A stretch of 10,014 nucleotides of DNA, taken from a virus. The notes below the pieces were generated by a model that saw only the letters and a program-made list of their open reading frames with translations, was not told the origin of the DNA and did no database searches. The translations under genes and the position numbers were made by a program. This document shows positions 3,212 through 10,014 of the stretch, in pieces. Each line of letters opens with the position of its first letter. Position 1 is the first letter of the stretch. Where the stretch lies: UHGV virus genome UHGV-0084903; one strand, 5' to 3'.

Positions 3212-3783
3212 TGAACAACTTAATGATCGACCTTGAGACGATGGGGAAAAATAAGGATGCACCGATCGTTTCCATTGGCGCGGTGTTCTTCACTCCAGAA
3301 ACCGGAGACATCGGACAAGAATTCTATACAGTTGTTAGCCTGGAAAGTGCTATGGGGCAAGGAGCTACACCTGACGGCGATACCATCCTGTGGTGGTTGA
3401 AACAAAGCCCTGAAGCACGAGCTGCAATCTGTATTGATGATACTTTGTCGATCAGCGATGCTCTCTCAGAACTAAATCATTTCATTAACCGGCACGCAGC
3501 CAATACGAAATATTTAAAAGTCTGGGGTAACGGGGCCACCTTCGACAACGTAATTTTACGTGGAGCTTATGAGCGAGCAGGACAAATCTGCCCGTGGGCA
3601 TACTGGAATGACCACGATGTACGCACGATCGTTACGCTTGGGCGTTCCATCGGATTCGACCCCAAAATGGACATGCCTTTCGATGGCGAACGGCACAACG
3701 CCCTGGCCGATGCCCGTCATCAGGCAAAATATGTTTCCGCTATCTGGCAGAAATTAATTCCTGCCACCAGCACAGAATTATGA
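3211..3783 (+). CDS. DnaQ-like DEDDh 3'-5' exonuclease
   Basis: Exo I motif IDLETMG (D-x-E), Exo II WGNGATFDNVIL, Exo III H-x4-D (HNALADARH). AGGAGG at 3198..3203 is 7 nt from ATG 3211; the GTG at 3208 is an alternative start. Confidence 0.75.
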   Translation: MNNLMIDLETMGKNKDAPIVSIGAVFFTPETGDIGQEFYTVVSLESAMGQGATPDGDTILWWLKQSPEARAAICIDDTLSISDALSELNHFINRHAANTKYLKVWGNGATFDNVILRGAYERAGQICPWAYWNDHDVRTIVTLGRSIGFDPKMDMPFDGERHNALADARHQAKYVSAIWQKLIPATSTEL

Positions 3784-3819
3784 TTTTCCCGGGTGCAGCC
3801 GGTTTTGATGGAGAAAATT

Positions 3820-4101
3820 ATGAACACCTTGTTTTTACTGATGGCTGAATTCAATACCCCTAACATTGAACTCTCAGCAGTTAGCCAAAAGTACTTTGGC
3901 ATGAGTCCAGCCACGGCAGAAGCAAAAGCAAACGCTTGTAAGTTGCCCGTTCCAACATATCGCATCGGCACATCACAAAAAGCAAAACGTTGCATCAATA
4001 TTCAGGATCTTGCGGAATACATAGACAAAAGACGAGAAGAAGGACGTATCGAGTGGGAACAGGTCAGAACAAGCAAACAGAAGGGCAAAGAACATCACTA
4101 A
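3820..4101 (+). CDS. PrtN-family (pyocin-activator-like) DNA-binding protein, excisionase-like
   Basis: MNTLFLLMAEF...YFGMSPATAEAKANACKLPVPTYRIGTSQKAKRCINIQDLAEYIDKRR resembles the PrtN/phage excisionase family. GGAG lies 7 nt upstream of ATG 3820; the in-frame upstream starts (3793 GTG, 3808 ATG) lack an SD. It occupies the xis position upstream of int. Confidence 0.65.
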   Translation: MNTLFLLMAEFNTPNIELSAVSQKYFGMSPATAEAKANACKLPVPTYRIGTSQKAKRCINIQDLAEYIDKRREEGRIEWEQVRTSKQKGKEHH

Positions 4102-4135
4102 AGAAAAAACCCGCCTAAAGGCGGGTTTTCAAAAA
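4102..4135. terminator. Bidirectional rho-independent terminator between convergent genes
   Basis: A-tract (4102..4109), perfect GC stem CCCGCC (4110..4115), loop TAAA, stem GGCGGG (4120..4125), then TTTT (4126..4129). It sits 1 nt after the + strand stop (4101) and 14 nt after the - strand stop (4149). Confidence 0.75.
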
Positions 4136-4148
4136 GCACCAGCTATGA

Positions 4149-4322
4149 TCATGCTGCTTTGCGACGACGAAGCTTACCCTGCTGCTCTTTACCAGAGACA
4201 GTAGCGTGAGTGAACGCATTAGGAGCAGCCTTCATCAGAACTTCAACAGCAGCACCCATACCTGCGAATGCTTTCATTGTGTCGAACTTAACCTGTGGCT
4301 TGGTTGCTTTTTGATCTTTCAT
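4149..4322 (-). CDS. small basic protein (57 aa), unknown function; second gene of the reverse-strand cargo cassette
   Basis: Not in the ORF track (<60 aa). Reverse-strand ATG at 4322 is preceded by GGGAG with 6-nt spacing. Translation MKDQKATKPQVKFDTMKAFAGMGAAVEVLMKAAPNAFTHATVSGKEQQGKLRRRKAA, stop TGA at 4149..4151, followed directly by the strong terminator. Codon choice is enriched in GCT/GGT/CGT/GTT. Confidence 0.55.
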   Translation of the reverse strand: MKDQKATKPQVKFDTMKAFAGMGAAVEVLMKAAPNAFTHATVSGKEQQGKLRRRKAA

Positions 4323-4518
4323 AGAAAACTCCCGAGACAGTAAAGGCGTCTCTAACCCTCTCTTTAAAGCTAGCTTGTTTAGCTAACTTATGCCAATCGA
4401 TCATGTCGATTGGTGACATCGTTTCTTAGTAGTTTAAGCACAAAACGACTGCCATAGATGTACCTTTAAGGTAATCTGGACGGGTATCCTACAATTTGTA
4501 GACCCTTCTCGTCTATAC

Positions 4519-5055
4519 CTACTGAGCAAATTTAAGAAAGATATCCTGCAGCTCATCAATGACTGCAGACATCACATAACCGCACTGTTCCATGCGGAAA
4601 CCAAAAGACTCGTAATACTGCACCAGTTCTGGTACTGGCTCTACAATGTGGACAACTTTACATTCAACAGCTTTACAAAATATAAAAGCACTCATAAGAG
4701 TGAGTAAAACCATGCGCCCTTTCAATGGGTGAGATTCATCTTCTCTAGAAAACCTTTCGATCATATGGATACGAAAGATGTTTTCTTCAACCCCATAAAC
4801 ACAAATTGCTGCTCCTGATGGTATTCCCTGAACCCGACCTTGCTGAACAAGTTTTATGCAGAACTCATACTTTTCTCTGGAGTTGCCATAGGTGCTTAAC
4901 GCATAGTCCCATTCAAGCTCACCATAGCCACCACACAGAATCTTGTAATCATCATCACTGAGCGGACCAACAGCAAGAGGTAAGCCGACATGATCAATAA
5001 TCAACTGGATATTGTTACGTACAGATTGACCTATCTCGTCTAGGGTAAGCATCAT
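4519..5055 (-). CDS. hypothetical protein (178 aa) with GNAT-like acyl-CoA N-acyltransferase fold signature; first gene of the reverse-strand cargo cassette
   Basis: Long ORF in an AT-rich segment. The C-terminal half shows GNAT-like topology (FRIHMIERF ... GRMVLLTLMSAFIFCKA ... VVHIVEP ... LVQYYESFGFR), but the canonical R/Q-x-x-G-x-G/A acetyl-CoA loop is not obvious. Fold assignment is tentative. Confidence 0.6.
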   Translation of the reverse strand: MMLTLDEIGQSVRNNIQLIIDHVGLPLAVGPLSDDDYKILCGGYGELEWDYALSTYGNSREKYEFCIKLVQQGRVQGIPSGAAICVYGVEENIFRIHMIERFSREDESHPLKGRMVLLTLMSAFIFCKAVECKVVHIVEPVPELVQYYESFGFRMEQCGYVMSAVIDELQDIFLKFAQ

Positions 5056-5084
5056 AGACTCTCAAGCGGAACACTAAAAATCTC

Positions 5085-5090
5085 ATTATA
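5085..5090 (-). promoter_or_regulatory. candidate -10 hexamer (TATAAT on - strand) for the reverse-strand cargo operon
   Basis: Perfect TATAAT on the reverse strand about 30 nt upstream of the 178-aa gene ATG. No convincing -35 was found, so this is a weak call. Confidence 0.3.
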
Positions 5091-5137
5091 TCTCATTCTG
5101 ATGCCCCGCATGGATTACACCTTGAAATGAAAACACC

Positions 5138-5371
5138 GGGTTCCCAATAGGCTCCCACAAAGTGTATAACTACTTGTTTTTCAAAAACGGTACATCCTAT
5201 CGAGCATAGGAGCAATGCTAAACCGAGAATTCCAGTAAACACCAGTTTTTTCAGGCATCACGCTGGTTTGATTAATTTTTTGTGTTTCATGATTATCGTG
5301 CATTTTTGAACATTTCAGGCTATTTTTCTCGCGTTAGGTTCCCGCACAGGTTCCCACGTTTTATGGGAACC
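5138..5371. repeat. Cluster of GGTTCCC(A) motifs in the int upstream region, including an inverted pair
   Basis: GGTTCCC at 5139..5145, 5337..5343 and 5349..5355; inverted copy GGGAACC at 5365..5371. The last two form an 8-bp inverted repeat GGTTCCCA-N7-TGGGAACC ending 20 nt before the int ATG. A separate 6-bp IR TCCTAT-N5-ATAGGA lies at 5195..5211. Confidence 0.5.
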
Positions 5372-5391
5372 CGAAATAACGAGGTCGTGTA

Positions 5392-6489
5392 ATGGCGTAC
5401 TATAACATAGAGAAACGACTAAAATCCGATGGCACACCACGCTATCGCTGTAATGTGATTATCAAAGAAAAAGGTGTTATCACTTACAGGGAAAGCAAAA
5501 CATTCCCTAAACATGCTCATGCCAAAACATGGGGAACACAGAAAGTGATGGAATTAGATCTATATGGCATTCCATCATCAAATGCAGTTGACGGACTTAC
5601 AGTCCGTGACTTACTACACAAATATTTAAATGACCCAAATGCCGGAGGTAAAGCAGGCCGTACTAAAAGATATGTGCTGGAACTGCTTATGGATAGTGAC
5701 ATCTCCGCGATCAAACTATCTGAACTGACAGAAAATGACGTAATTGAACATTGCAGGCTAAGAAACAACGCTGGTGCAGGTCCAGCAACAGTCAGCCACG
5801 ATGTTAGTTATCTTGGCAGTGTTCTGGATGCGGCCAAACCTGTATACGGAATTAATTACACATCAAACCCGGCGAAAAGCGCTCGCCCATATCTACTTAA
5901 ACTTGGTTTGATTGGTAAATCAAACCGTCGTAATCGTAGACCAGCATCTGATGAACTGGACATGCTCATTGAAGGCCTTCAACAACGATCTACTCATAAA
6001 TGCTCAAAAATTCCGTTCGTTGATATCCTCAAATTTTCTGTGTGGTCCTGTATGCGGATCGGAGAAGTATGCCGGTTACGATGGGAAGATCTCGACCAGG
6101 AACAAAAATCTATACTCGTAAGAGACAGGAAAGATCCACGCAAAAAGGAAGGCAACCACATGAAAGTAGCCTTGCTTGGGGAAGCCTGGGATATCGTCCA
6201 ACGACAGCCCAAAAAATCGGAATTCATTTTTCCATATAACAGCACTTCTGTTACTGCAGGATTTCAGAGGGTAAGAAGCAAATTAGGTATTAAAGATCTG
6301 CGATACCATGATTTGCGTAGAGAAGGGGCAAGTCGCTTATTTGAGGCTGGTTTTAGTATTGAGGAAGTCGCTCAGGTTACAGGGCATCGTTCATTAAACG
6401 TGCTATGGCAGGTATATACCGAACTGTATCCGAAATCTTTACATAATCGTTTTGAAGAGCTCCAAAGGAGCAGAAATAAGACCTCTTGA
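5392..6489 (+). CDS. int: Tyrosine site-specific recombinase (phage integrase)
   Basis: 365-aa ORF; GAGG 7 nt upstream of the ATG. Catalytic-domain signature: Arg in CMRIGEVCRLRWEDL, H-x-x-R in HDLRREGAS, His in TGHRS and a downstream Tyr (VLWQVYTELY). Confidence 0.85.
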   Translation: MAYYNIEKRLKSDGTPRYRCNVIIKEKGVITYRESKTFPKHAHAKTWGTQKVMELDLYGIPSSNAVDGLTVRDLLHKYLNDPNAGGKAGRTKRYVLELLMDSDISAIKLSELTENDVIEHCRLRNNAGAGPATVSHDVSYLGSVLDAAKPVYGINYTSNPAKSARPYLLKLGLIGKSNRRNRRPASDELDMLIEGLQQRSTHKCSKIPFVDILKFSVWSCMRIGEVCRLRWEDLDQEQKSILVRDRKDPRKKEGNHMKVALLGEAWDIVQRQPKKSEFIFPYNSTSVTAGFQRVRSKLGIKDLRYHDLRREGASRLFEAGFSIEEVAQVTGHRSLNVLWQVYTELYPKSLHNRFEELQRSRNKTS

Positions 6490-8210: not shown

Positions 8211-10014
8211 TATATTACCTCTCCCATTTGTGCATCGGTTAATTCTTTATGCCATATACGAAAATTACGAATGTGACCGAAAAGATGACGTAGACCGCTA
8301 TTAGTCTGTCCCCCAATCCTGAAGAAATAACCAGATTTAACACCGACATGATCCGTGGTTTTAGGAGTCCCATGCTGGGCATTGCTAACGAAATGCACAT
8401 TACCAGATTCATTTAAAACAAATCCAAGAACAGATTTTTGTTCAAATAATACTGGCGATACGGCGGCTACTGTACTACCGTTTTTATTGTGCATCGTAAC
8501 ACCAGGAAATAATGTTGAACTAATAGCAACACTTATATATTGACCCGGAGTTGTGCTCCCACCACTGGTATCAAAAATTCGTGGTGCTGCATTTGGCGTT
8601 TCGTTCCAGTTTGTATGAACTTCAGCTAGAAATGTTAAAGGTGGTGTACCGATATTGTTATTTGTTGGTATATTCACCATATCACTGGCTCTTGTGACTG
8701 GCGTTGCCTCAGTAATAATAAACGAAGAAGCGCACGAACCGCCTTCGACCTGAGGAGTTGCAACATAAATATAATCATCTGCACCAGTGCTTCCCCCTTT
8801 TGGTGGTGCATATTGCACCATCGCACCGATCATATTTTCTGTATCAAGTGCCTTAATTGTTGCCTCAAAGAAAATCCATTTGCTTGCTTCATTTTTAACA
8901 GCCCTTGCAGTAATACGACTTGCAGCGCCGCCAGTTTTATCAATCGATAAATCTGTCATATTTAAGTAAGCATCACCCAGGAATTTGTAGGTAGATCCAT
9001 CATATTCTTCAAATCGTAATCGACATCTTAAATTTGGAGTCCCACTTTGTACCCTGCATGAGATAGTTACATACTTTTCATCGCCGGTAACATCATATCC
9101 TTTGCTTCCAGATACTGTGACAATAGAAATGGCTGAGGTTTGCCCCACCATTTCTGGTTTTAATGTGAATTTTGCGTACTGGAAACCAAAATCATCTACA
9201 CCTGATGTATTTAAAATCATATTTGATGACTTGTTCCACTTTGATGGATTTGTGCTGTTTATTAACAGGTTTGTACGCTGCCCTTCAATCAGCAATCCAT
9301 ACTTTTCAAAGCGAGGTTCATCGATTGCAGCCTCTGTCAGCACACCAGATTTATTAATGTAAGTTGCTTTTGATGCGCGTTTAAACTTTACAATCTTGTC
9401 GCCAGGCATTGTTATTTCATCATCACCAATAACAATCTTTTTATATGATGGCGAAAAGCCCGTAATCATATCCAGTGAATCGTTAAACGGTATCCACACA
9501 TCAGGAAGCGGCTGTAAGACATATTTATACGGCTCTGCTGCCTGGCTTGCGTACTCCCTGGCTGCGTCTTCACTTGCTTTTGCAGCCGTCTGGCTTGCAG
9601 CTGATGCTTTCGCCGAGTTAGCAGCCGCAGTCTCGCTCGCCTTTGCGTTGGTTTCACTGGTTTTTGCAGCTTTTTGACTGTTGGCTGATGCAATGGCAGA
9701 AGCAGCCGCCGCGCTTGCAGAACCAGCTGCAGCACTCTCGCTTTGGGCTGCTGCATCCTGACTGTTTTTCGCCGCAGTTTCGCTGGTTTTGGCATTCGTT
9801 TCGCTGGTCTTCGCTGCCGTCTGGCTGGACTTTGCGTTGGTTTCGCTCGCCTTCGCAGCTTTCTGGCTGTTAGCCGCAGCAGTTGCTGATCCAGCTGCTG
9901 AAGTCGCAGAACCGGCTGCCGCGCTCTCGCTTTGGGCTGCTGCAACCTGGCTGTTTTTTGCCGCAGTTTCACTGGCTTTGGCATTCGTTTCGCTGGTTTT
10001 CGCTGCCGTCTGGC
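8210..10014 (-). CDS. stf: Side tail fibre protein (partial; N-terminal part lies beyond the window end)
   Basis: Reverse-strand frame is open from the window edge (10012) to the stop at 8210, 600 aa in-window. The ORF-track 'M' at 9499 is an internal GTG. Upstream part encodes AAKTSETNAKASETAAKNSQ-type repeats like lambda Stf; C-terminus ends ...HLFGHIRNFRIWHKELTDAQMGEVI, resembling the end of LamG/concanavalin-A-like domains. Confidence 0.85.
   Translation of the reverse strand, partial: QTAAKTSETNAKASETAAKNSQVAAAQSESAAAGSATSAAGSATAAANSQKAAKASETNAKSSQTAAKTSETNAKTSETAAKNSQDAAAQSESAAAGSASAAAASAIASANSQKAAKTSETNAKASETAAANSAKASAASQTAAKASEDAAREYASQAAEPYKYVLQPLPDVWIPFNDSLDMITGFSPSYKKIVIGDDEITMPGDKIVKFKRASKATYINKSGVLTEAAIDEPRFEKYGLLIEGQRTNLLINSTNPSKWNKSSNMILNTSGVDDFGFQYAKFTLKPEMVGQTSAISIVTVSGSKGYDVTGDEKYVTISCRVQSGTPNLRCRLRFEEYDGSTYKFLGDAYLNMTDLSIDKTGGAASRITARAVKNEASKWIFFEATIKALDTENMIGAMVQYAPPKGGSTGADDYIYVATPQVEGGSCASSFIITEATPVTRASDMVNIPTNNNIGTPPLTFLAEVHTNWNETPNAAPRIFDTSGGSTTPGQYISVAISSTLFPGVTMHNKNGSTVAAVSPVLFEQKSVLGFVLNESGNVHFVSNAQHGTPKTTDHVGVKSGYFFRIGGQTNSGLRHLFGHIRNFRIWHKELTDAQMGEVI
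9540..10014. repeat. In-frame imperfect tandem DNA repeats (period about 189 bp) within the tail fibre gene
   Basis: Near-identical blocks recur, e.g. the motif ctctcgctttgggctgctgca at about 9736 and about 9925, and cgctggt(t/c)ttcgctgccgtctggc at about 9801 and about 9990. They translate in-frame into Ala/Ser-rich fibre repeats; they are coding repeats, not a CRISPR array. Confidence 0.7.

Follow-up and report, generated by a model that had tools for sequence, protein, structure and literature searches.

The 57-amino-acid (aa) open reading frame (ORF) at 4149..4322, on the minus strand of virus genome UHGV-0084903 (a stretch of 10,014 nucleotides [nt], referred to here in its entirety as the window), is best explained as encoding a dedicated small partner of the GNAT-fold enzyme whose gene lies immediately upstream. 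The window represents the attachment-site end of an mEp460-like lambdoid Escherichia coli phage that integrates into dusA, with 97.9% identity to phage mEp460 over 3700..5400. Comparisons of related loci indicate that the two genes form a self-contained, horizontally mobile prophage cargo cassette in which the function of the small gene is linked to that of the GNAT gene. As to what the small protein does, we consider it about an even call that it is a labile, antitoxin-like inhibitor of the enzyme, made in excess and ending in a ClpX-degron-like RRRKAA tail.

The ORF starts with ATG, is preceded at a spacing of 6 nt by the Shine-Dalgarno (SD) sequence GGGAG (4329..4333, minus strand; GAGG or GGAG occupies the equivalent position in other clades), and translates to MKDQKATKPQVKFDTMKAFAGMGAAVEVLMKAAPNAFTHATVSGKEQQGKLRRRKAA. 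A preliminary description of this DNA, made from the sequence of the window, was accurate on these points and on the Ala-rich core and basic tail of the protein, which has an isoelectric point (pI) of 10.5 and a net charge of +8. It had called the gene unannotated, which holds only for the ORF track that it used: RefSeq contains the hypothetical protein WP_000654815.1, identical to mEp460 gp24 (YP_007112098.1), and phrog_2741 (function unknown) matches residues 1 to 57 of 57 with E = 8.1e-36. No family match to the 57-aa protein was found in Pfam, NCBIfam, or PADLOC, and a sequence-profile search of the PDB returned only spurious weak matches to DARPins. Downstream of the gene, an intrinsic-terminator-like hairpin (4104..4130; GAAAACCCGCC-TTTA-GGCGGGTTTT(TT), with T6 after an 11-bp stem that has 6 G-C pairs) forms the minus-strand end of the cassette. 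The terminator that had been reported is therefore present, but the 14 nt given as its distance from the ORF was incorrect, as the stop codon is 18 nt from the stem and 23 nt from its G+C core. The hairpin lies between the small ORF and a convergent xis/PrtN-like gene on the plus strand, which by its position it can also serve, and homologous cassettes in other contexts likewise terminate in such a hairpin.

Relatives of the 57-aa protein are few. A word-indexed search of 5.8 billion proteins identified 48 of them, in Escherichia, Salmonella, Enterobacter, Atlantibacter, Franconibacter, Cronobacter, and Hafnia, and an exhaustive profile search of 1.84 billion representatives identified only 14 proteins, including eight more distant ones of 54 to 61 aa. 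Across 24 close and 11 distant homologues (54 to 61 aa), the core was retained and the flanks varied. In the window protein, the conserved core reads KFDT.KAFAGMGAAVEVLMKAAPNAF, followed by QGK, a basic patch, and a C-terminal AA; the motif common to the family is F-D/E-T..aF.(R/G)MG.AV(E/D).L.KAAP..(F/L), continued by QG(K/R), a basic stretch, and AA or VA at the C terminus. K/R-rich residues precede this terminal AA or VA in all full-length homologues, and the tail of the window protein was predicted to be nonhelical by AlphaFold2. Ratios of nonsynonymous to synonymous substitution rates (dN/dS) for the small ORF compared with seven homologues were 0.07 to 0.32, with synonymous sites near saturation, and the noncoding DNA around the ORF could not be aligned between distant loci. 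Purifying selection in frame, together with conservation of length and motif, indicates that the 57-aa ORF is a real protein-coding gene of the translated type that had been proposed.

Codon usage further distinguishes the gene. Its codon adaptation index (CAI), calculated with Sharp-Li weights entered by hand, was 0.56, compared with 0.23 to 0.44 for 12 other genes of the window and 0.29 for the GNAT gene. When the gene was recoded synonymously with the window's own codon usage, no more than 0.04% of the versions reached this value. In the Enterobacteriaceae homologues, the small ORF scored 0.52 to 0.61 and the accompanying GNAT genes scored 0.25 to 0.32. The codon bias described previously is real and beyond chance, and, judged by it, the small gene is probably expressed more strongly than its GNAT partner, in line with the earlier suggestion of a probably abundant protein.

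The distribution of the pair was examined in loci that were gathered via the GNAT protein, with isolate genomes, IMG/VR, and metagenomes as sources. In 154 of 154 GNAT loci (51 distinct spacers), an intact small ORF was located 93 to 197 nt downstream on the same strand. No small ORF with a disrupted frame was observed at any of these loci, and the proposed link to the GNAT-like neighbor is supported by this co-occurrence and by relaxed selection where the GNAT gene has been replaced (see below). The position of the pair differs between hosts. E. coli prophages carry it at their attachment-site end; Hafnia, Franconibacter, and several metagenomic phages carry it between the late antiterminator Q and the holin; and Photorhabdus carries it among tail genes. 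The pair is also present in Edwardsiella and Shewanella. As expected of a phage "moron," the same cassette, with its terminator and predicted promoters, thus occurs in at least four prophage contexts, from which its character as mobile cargo is concluded.

The association of the two genes is unidirectional. The GNAT gene without the small gene was never found among the 154 loci, and the small gene without a working GNAT gene was found in three situations. Cronobacter phages carry the small gene alone, with its own −10-like element and terminator; at one locus (L142) an intact small ORF follows a GNAT gene that is twice frameshifted; and in E. coli the small ORF can follow a Panacea-domain pair (see below). 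Such a pattern, no toxin gene without its antitoxin and occasional orphan antitoxins, is that of toxin-antitoxin pairs. Among complete E. coli genomes, the small ORF was present in 562, the GNAT gene in 358, and the spacer between them in 358, corresponding to ∼7% of genomes for the GNAT cassette (358/5,426) and ∼10% for the small gene. Cassette-bearing strains include O157:H7, O145, O111, and other Shiga toxin-producing E. coli, as well as extraintestinal pathogenic E. coli lineages. In O157:H7 strain 9234 (locus L163, at dusA), the cassette is intact inside a decayed prophage remnant, beside pseudogenes for an exonuclease, a methyltransferase, a DUF2303 protein, and a tail-tip protein; both cassette proteins are identical to those of the window-matching SM107 and AH02 records (WP_000956557.1 and WP_000654815.1).

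A natural experiment on the dependence of the small gene was provided by ∼200 complete E. coli genomes that have a Panacea-domain (PF13274) gene and a 128/139-aa gene in place of the GNAT gene and spacer, with the junction ∼10 nt upstream of the ATG of the small ORF. The replacement was analyzed at loci L161 (1473-2674), L162, and L164 to L166, which comprise E. coli phages Lys8385Vzw and SKA5 and chromosomal prophages. The slot near the attachment site is a cargo hotspot, and other phages carry genes annotated as YafM/YafO there. In 84 GNAT-linked small ORFs from close E. coli-type prophages, nine synonymous and three nonsynonymous distinct changes were found, the latter all at variable positions; omega was ∼0.1 and departed from neutrality (p = 0.0002). 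In 63 Panacea-linked small ORFs, two synonymous and 13 nonsynonymous changes were found, and neutrality was not rejected (p = 0.54). These changes include P34H, L29M, K50E, V26A, A20V/I, A56V, and A57V, and hence affect residues conserved across the family (P34, L29, and K50) and both terminal alanines (A56 and A57). In a complete E. coli genome, yet another Panacea-linked copy has its SD sequence mutated from GGAG to GGTG. The contrast between the two sets (Fisher p = 0.002) rests on 27 distinct changes in a small, clonally related sample. From the counts of 9:3 and 2:13, selection therefore appears to act on the small protein only where the GNAT gene accompanies it, a sign that the two genes are functionally coupled. 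At L166 (2826-3860), the small ORF is separated from the xis gene by an inserted gene with the annotation competence protein CoiA, and this copy of the small ORF has four amino acid changes and a mutated SD sequence.

The first gene of the cassette (4519..5055, minus strand) encodes a 178-aa acidic protein (WP_000956557.1; mEp460 gp23; phrog_4350). No Pfam, NCBIfam, or PADLOC family matched it at E ≤ 1, and a sequence-profile search of the PDB gave only spurious weak matches (the designed gp41-derived gp41-5 and armadillo repeats). An AlphaFold2 model built from a 29-sequence alignment, however, had a mean predicted local distance difference test score (pLDDT) of 92 and a GNAT alpha/beta fold, so that the earlier designation of this neighbor as GNAT-like is supported by predicted structure though not by a Pfam or NCBIfam match. 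The best structural matches were the N-terminal protein acetyltransferases NatD, Naa20, Ard1, and RimI. In the region corresponding to motif B (Y-x-x-x-G-F on helix 4, with the catalytic-type Tyr), Y148, G152, and F153 (YYESFGF) are invariant in the 29 homologues and are placed on model helix 142-149. A −10-like element, TATAAT (5085..5090, minus strand), is located ∼30 to 35 nt upstream of the GNAT start codons; it was read from the sequence only, and a TA..AT element upstream of the GNAT gene is retained in other contexts, usually just past an upstream terminator.

The 196-nt spacer between the two genes (4323..4518, minus strand) was also characterized. A −35-like hexamer, TAGACG (4510..4515, minus strand), whose TAG is the GNAT stop codon in many homologues, is located 18 nt upstream of a −10-like hexamer, TAGGAT (4486..4491, minus strand). 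The pattern TAGACG-N16-18-TAnnAT, at or just past the GNAT stop codon, was present in 21 of 28 distinct loci compared with 3% of shuffles, and it extended to Hafnia-type and other clades with spacers that could not otherwise be aligned. We infer that this motif is the small gene's own promoter; a consensus sigma-70 scan did not flag an internal promoter, and the element rests on its conservation. A hairpin just past the GNAT stop codon (4498..4518, minus strand; GUAUAGAC-N-GUCUAC) is replaced in other clades by a different palindrome, ACGGGAUCCCGU, and each of these palindromes (GUAGAC..GUCUAC or ACGGGAUCCCGU) falls inside the spacer of the promoter-like element. Neither the promoter-like element nor the structured RNA that follows it was mentioned in the preliminary description.

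In Enterobacteriaceae, the spacer downstream of the promoter-like motif contains five consecutive hairpins, P1 to P5 (4334..4477, all on the minus strand). P1 (4456..4477) has the core UUACC-N5-GGUAA and a lower stem that differs between clades, and it would be near the 5′ end of a transcript from the internal promoter. P2 (4418..4449; GUCGUUU...AAACGAU), with changes on both sides in four of six pairs, is missing as a whole module in three loci (L024, L025, and L123). P3 (4393..4413; CCAAUCGA-N5-UCGAUUGG) shows C-G to U-G and A-U to G-U changes, and P4 (4367..4389; AAGUUAGC...GCUAGCUU) shows pair-keeping changes on both sides in four of eight pairs. P5 (4334..4352; GAGAC-N9-GUCUC), in which the variation is A-U to G-U only, abuts the SD sequence. 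When 14 diverged leaders were folded singly, essentially the same series of hairpins was obtained, with z-scores of −1.3 to −6.5. In a structure-blind MAFFT alignment, 83.6% of cells pair, compared with 26 to 45% with slid partners, and 36 cells have changed on both sides, compared with 6 to 13 in the slid controls. A covariance model of the leader scored 86 to 149 bits on the gene strand of 19 distinct loci and gave only weak matches on the opposite strand (11 to 16 bits, mostly partial and palindromic). In the model-fitted alignment, P2 and P4 have four compensatory pairs each; the variation in P1, P3, and P5 is from C-G to U-G and from A-U to G-U, which leaves the stems paired only in RNA of the gene strand.

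No Rfam family matched 4323..4518 at E ≤ 1; weak Rfam matches at 4097..4200 all rest on the terminator hairpin. The covariance model found no match in the spacers of Hafnia, Photorhabdus, Edwardsiella, Shewanella, L014, L136, and L139, whose folding z-scores were +0.3 to −4.1 and which are structured only in part. Because the model misses these more distant spacers, the five-hairpin architecture is demonstrated for the Enterobacteriaceae clade only. Pairing of the 5′ end of the leader with the SD sequence, in a closing anti-SD helix, was considered and rejected, as duplex energies in 27 leaders were no better than those obtained with shuffled 5′ segments. Identity with sRNA-17 of E. coli K1 was also rejected, as a 30-nt stretch of that RNA was unmatched in the window at up to three mismatches. 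sRNA-17 is a 193-nt RNA of an mEp460-like prophage in E. coli K1 RS218, found in an "intergenic" region after hypothetical genes had been removed from the annotation (PMC7719688).

The favored model takes the layout of the cassette as promoter, GNAT gene, second promoter-like element, long leader, small gene, and terminator. The basic, largely unfolded small protein would bind the acidic GNAT protein via its conserved hydrophobic helix (residues ∼13 to 37) and hold it inactive. It would be kept in excess by its own promoter-like element and by codon adaptation approximately twice that of the GNAT gene, and the five-hairpin 5′ leader of Enterobacteriaceae may stabilize the mRNA or control translation of the small gene. 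Rapid turnover of the small protein is also envisaged, given the likeness of its conserved basic tail, with Ala-Ala at the end, to the signals that ClpX recognizes. If synthesis stopped, for example upon infection by another phage or loss of the element, free enzyme would acylate a cellular target and arrest growth, following the logic of toxin-antitoxin or abortive-infection systems. In this scheme, the inhibition, the instability, the toxicity, and the target of the enzyme are all inferred.

Several lines of evidence favor toxin-antitoxin logic: the one-way co-occurrence, the separate promoter-like element, the higher codon adaptation, and the degron-like tail, by which antitoxin is the best fit among the three functions that had been suggested for the small protein. 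The slot shared with a Panacea-type pair and the intact cassette in the decayed O157:H7 prophage point the same way. A partnership as such is also favored by charge, as the small protein is basic in all full-length homologues (pI 9.6 to 10.8) and the GNAT protein is acidic in every lineage (pI 4.3 to 5.5). The other two suggestions, a nucleic acid binder and a regulator of the cassette, received no specific support, with no DNA-binding fold and no Pfam or PDB match.

Other observations weigh against an antitoxin. Unlike those of classical type II systems, the putative antitoxin gene is downstream of the enzyme gene, 93 to 197 nt away, and its product has no DNA-binding domain; the AlphaFold2 model of the product is a single central helix of low confidence (pLDDT 61) with unstructured ends. 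The fold matches of the modeled enzyme are to generic GNAT proteins, with none pointing specifically to a toxin. At its motif A site (the acetyl-CoA pyrophosphate loop before helix 3), the invariant H109-P-L-x-G113-x-M115 (HPLKGRM) is noncanonical: compared with Q/R-x-x-G-x-G/A, it contains a single Gly, a Met where the second small residue would be, and a longer preceding loop. The enzyme is, moreover, strongly acidic, which is not expected of a tRNA-binding toxin. PADLOC contains no model matching the cassette, and no publication on the 57-aa or the 178-aa protein was found when the literature was searched with accessions, peptide sequences, and keywords. The limited sample behind the selection contrast counts here as well, as the Panacea-linked loci are closely related and were retrieved by an exact 27-nt match. 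Finally, the stand-alone Cronobacter homologue is still under purifying selection (dN/dS of 0.12), which suggests a function that does not need the GNAT gene in cis.

The main alternative is that the small basic protein is a substrate, activating subunit, or targeting adaptor of the GNAT enzyme, being acetylated at its N terminus or a lysine, for example, or bringing the acidic enzyme to nucleic acid or the ribosome. The evidence for coupling, including the acidic enzyme and basic partner kept throughout, is shared with the antitoxin model, the top structural matches act on basic proteins (NatD on histones and RimI on ribosomal protein S18), and the N terminus MK.QK is fairly conserved. If the partner were no more than a cofactor or substrate, however, decayed small ORFs would be expected beside intact GNAT genes; none were seen in 154 loci, and the one decayed GNAT gene was accompanied by an intact small ORF. 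The candidate acceptor K50 is R or P in distant homologues, and the separate promoter-like element, the twofold higher codon adaptation, and the degron-like tail are better suited to a labile stoichiometric inhibitor. We therefore rate this alternative as unlikely, although it is the strongest competitor of the inhibitor.

It is still less probable that the small protein acts independently of the GNAT enzyme, for instance in nucleic acid binding or regulation at the integration/excision end of the phage, and is simply a conserved gene product encoded beside a variable cargo slot. Because the cargo junction in E. coli is ∼10 nt upstream of the ATG, the small ORF stays with the xis side; it is also present in more complete E. 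coli genomes than the GNAT gene (562 versus 358) and stands alone, conserved, in Cronobacter phages. Outside E. coli, however, it travels with the GNAT gene and not with xis, to quite different positions; where the GNAT gene is absent, it acquires nonsynonymous changes at conserved residues and, in one copy, an SD mutation; and no DNA- or RNA-binding fold or family was detected for its product in Pfam, the PDB, or the AlphaFold2 model. That the functional product is instead a structured RNA (a small RNA or RNA antitoxin), with the reading frame incidental or a leader peptide, is very improbable: the five-hairpin spacer RNA is conserved with covariation and is specific to the gene strand, but the structured part is upstream of the ORF and not within it, the ORF is conserved in length, strongly biased in its codons, and under purifying selection at the codon level, and the protein family reaches clades in which the covariance model finds no leader.

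Among known systems, the GNAT/ribbon-helix-helix (RHH) type II toxin-antitoxin pairs (TacAT, AtaRT, KacAT, and ItaRT) are similar in having a GNAT-fold enzyme of ∼175 aa and a small protein encoded adjacent to it, on mobile DNA, and in the cassette the enzyme gene likewise never occurs without the small gene. The proteins themselves have no sequence-level relationship. In that family, the toxin arrests growth by acetylating aminoacyl-tRNA, and the antitoxin neutralizes it through direct binding; for the cassette, the corresponding indications are indirect, namely the one-way co-occurrence and the relaxed selection on small ORFs that lack a GNAT gene. Antitoxins of that family have an N-terminal RHH (DUF1778) DNA-binding domain and are encoded upstream, overlapping or abutting the toxin gene; the partner in the cassette is a basic 57-aa protein with no RHH/DUF1778 domain (by Pfam, NCBIfam, and the single helix of the AlphaFold2 model), encoded downstream past the 93- to 197-nt spacer with its own promoter-like element, and the enzyme, a putative toxin, is acidic. 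By analogy, the cassette would work like the GNAT/RHH family yet is outside it, with the fold in common and with a different sequence family, antitoxin domain, gene order, and spacing. Toxin-antitoxin operons in which the toxin gene is first and an internal promoter serves the antitoxin, such as rnlAB and higBA, offer a parallel in arrangement: an effector is followed by a neutralizer, and with a promoter of its own the second gene would yield the labile partner in excess. The proteins of those operons are unrelated, and the second gene of the cassette follows a structured leader of 130 to 165 nt. The PanA (Panacea-domain) pairs occupy exactly the same cargo slot in dusA-integrating E. coli prophages, with the same small ORF and terminator, but their proteins differ, and the small ORF there appears to be a drifting leftover.

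C-terminal ClpX recognition signals, reportedly described by Flynn and colleagues in 2003, are said to include the ...LAA of ssrA and the ...RRKKAI of MuA. The RRRKAA of the 57-aa protein combines a basic patch with a terminal Ala-Ala, either of which (the patch with a small hydrophobic residue) would fit a degron sequence of this type, but the likeness to these motifs is a resemblance only. The enzyme differs from the N-terminal acetyltransferases NatD/Naa40, Naa20, and RimI, with 9 to 13% identity, no Pfam match, and a noncanonical motif A. The leader resembles structured 5′ leaders of bacterial mRNAs such as the ompA stabilizer hairpins and the autoregulatory leaders of ribosomal proteins in being a long, multihairpin region directly upstream of an SD sequence, in front of a gene that is small, basic, and codon optimized; unlike them, it matches no Rfam family. 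More tentatively, and with somewhat greater doubt than confidence, we propose that the pair represents an undescribed toxin-antitoxin or abortive-infection family of prophages of Enterobacterales and Shewanella, consisting of a divergent acidic GNAT acyltransferase, an overproduced, ClpXP-labile, basic 57-aa neutralizer with no DNA-binding domain, and, in Enterobacteriaceae, a new five-hairpin leader RNA family that would govern synthesis of the neutralizer.

The gene order of this part of the window is 3′-5′ exonuclease, xis/PrtN-like gene (plus strand), 57-aa ORF (minus), 178-aa ORF (minus), 5′ copy of dusA (minus), and integrase (plus). The dusA copy (5199..5303, minus strand) consists of the first 35 codons of host dusA, in the attP region, and adjoins the integrase gene (5392..6489, plus strand); dusA-specific integrases have been described (PMC4482086). 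By its position, the copy marks the cassette as cargo carried at the attachment-site end. The window is matched by hundreds of chromosomal prophages as far as 5306, where the region upstream of host dusA starts. In lysogens, the host dusA promoter and the truncated dusA frame (5199..5303 and 5304..5391) are directed into the cassette, and because the promoter points into it, the cassette could also be transcribed from the host. The closest matches to the window (99.6 to 99.8% identity over 3700..5400) are three circular records of 37 to 44 kb deposited as E. coli "plasmids" (NZ_CP081704.1, NZ_CP081794.1, and NZ_CP081716.1). Their attP-type junction is intact, with the dusA fragment beside int, and they look more like excised or circular phage genomes than plasmids. 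One of them encodes a type II restriction endonuclease together with a cytosine methyltransferase in place of the tail fibre genes of the window. Elsewhere in the window, 9396..9984 contains long overlapping ORFs on both strands with repetitive Ala/Leu- or Lys/Arg/Gln-rich translations, which suggests the repetitive part of a tail fibre gene running past the window end. In Hafnia paralvei prophages (L004 4150-5109, L005 4051-5109, L006, and L007), the cassette is immediately preceded by a RelA_SpoT-domain gene, in the interval from the antiterminator to the holin. The product of this gene (319 to 352 aa) is of the small alarmone synthetase type, and the gene is possibly a second toxin- or defense-type cargo gene.

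Both cassette proteins are still annotated as hypothetical. The comparison of GNAT-linked with GNAT-less copies serves as a natural experiment indicating a functional tie of the small gene, and comparative support is good for the leader as a candidate new cis-regulatory RNA. Should the pair prove to be a toxin-antitoxin or defense module, it would add a GNAT effector with a new kind of neutralizer to the immunity systems carried by prophages, and such a role would help to explain why the cassette remains intact in decayed prophages.

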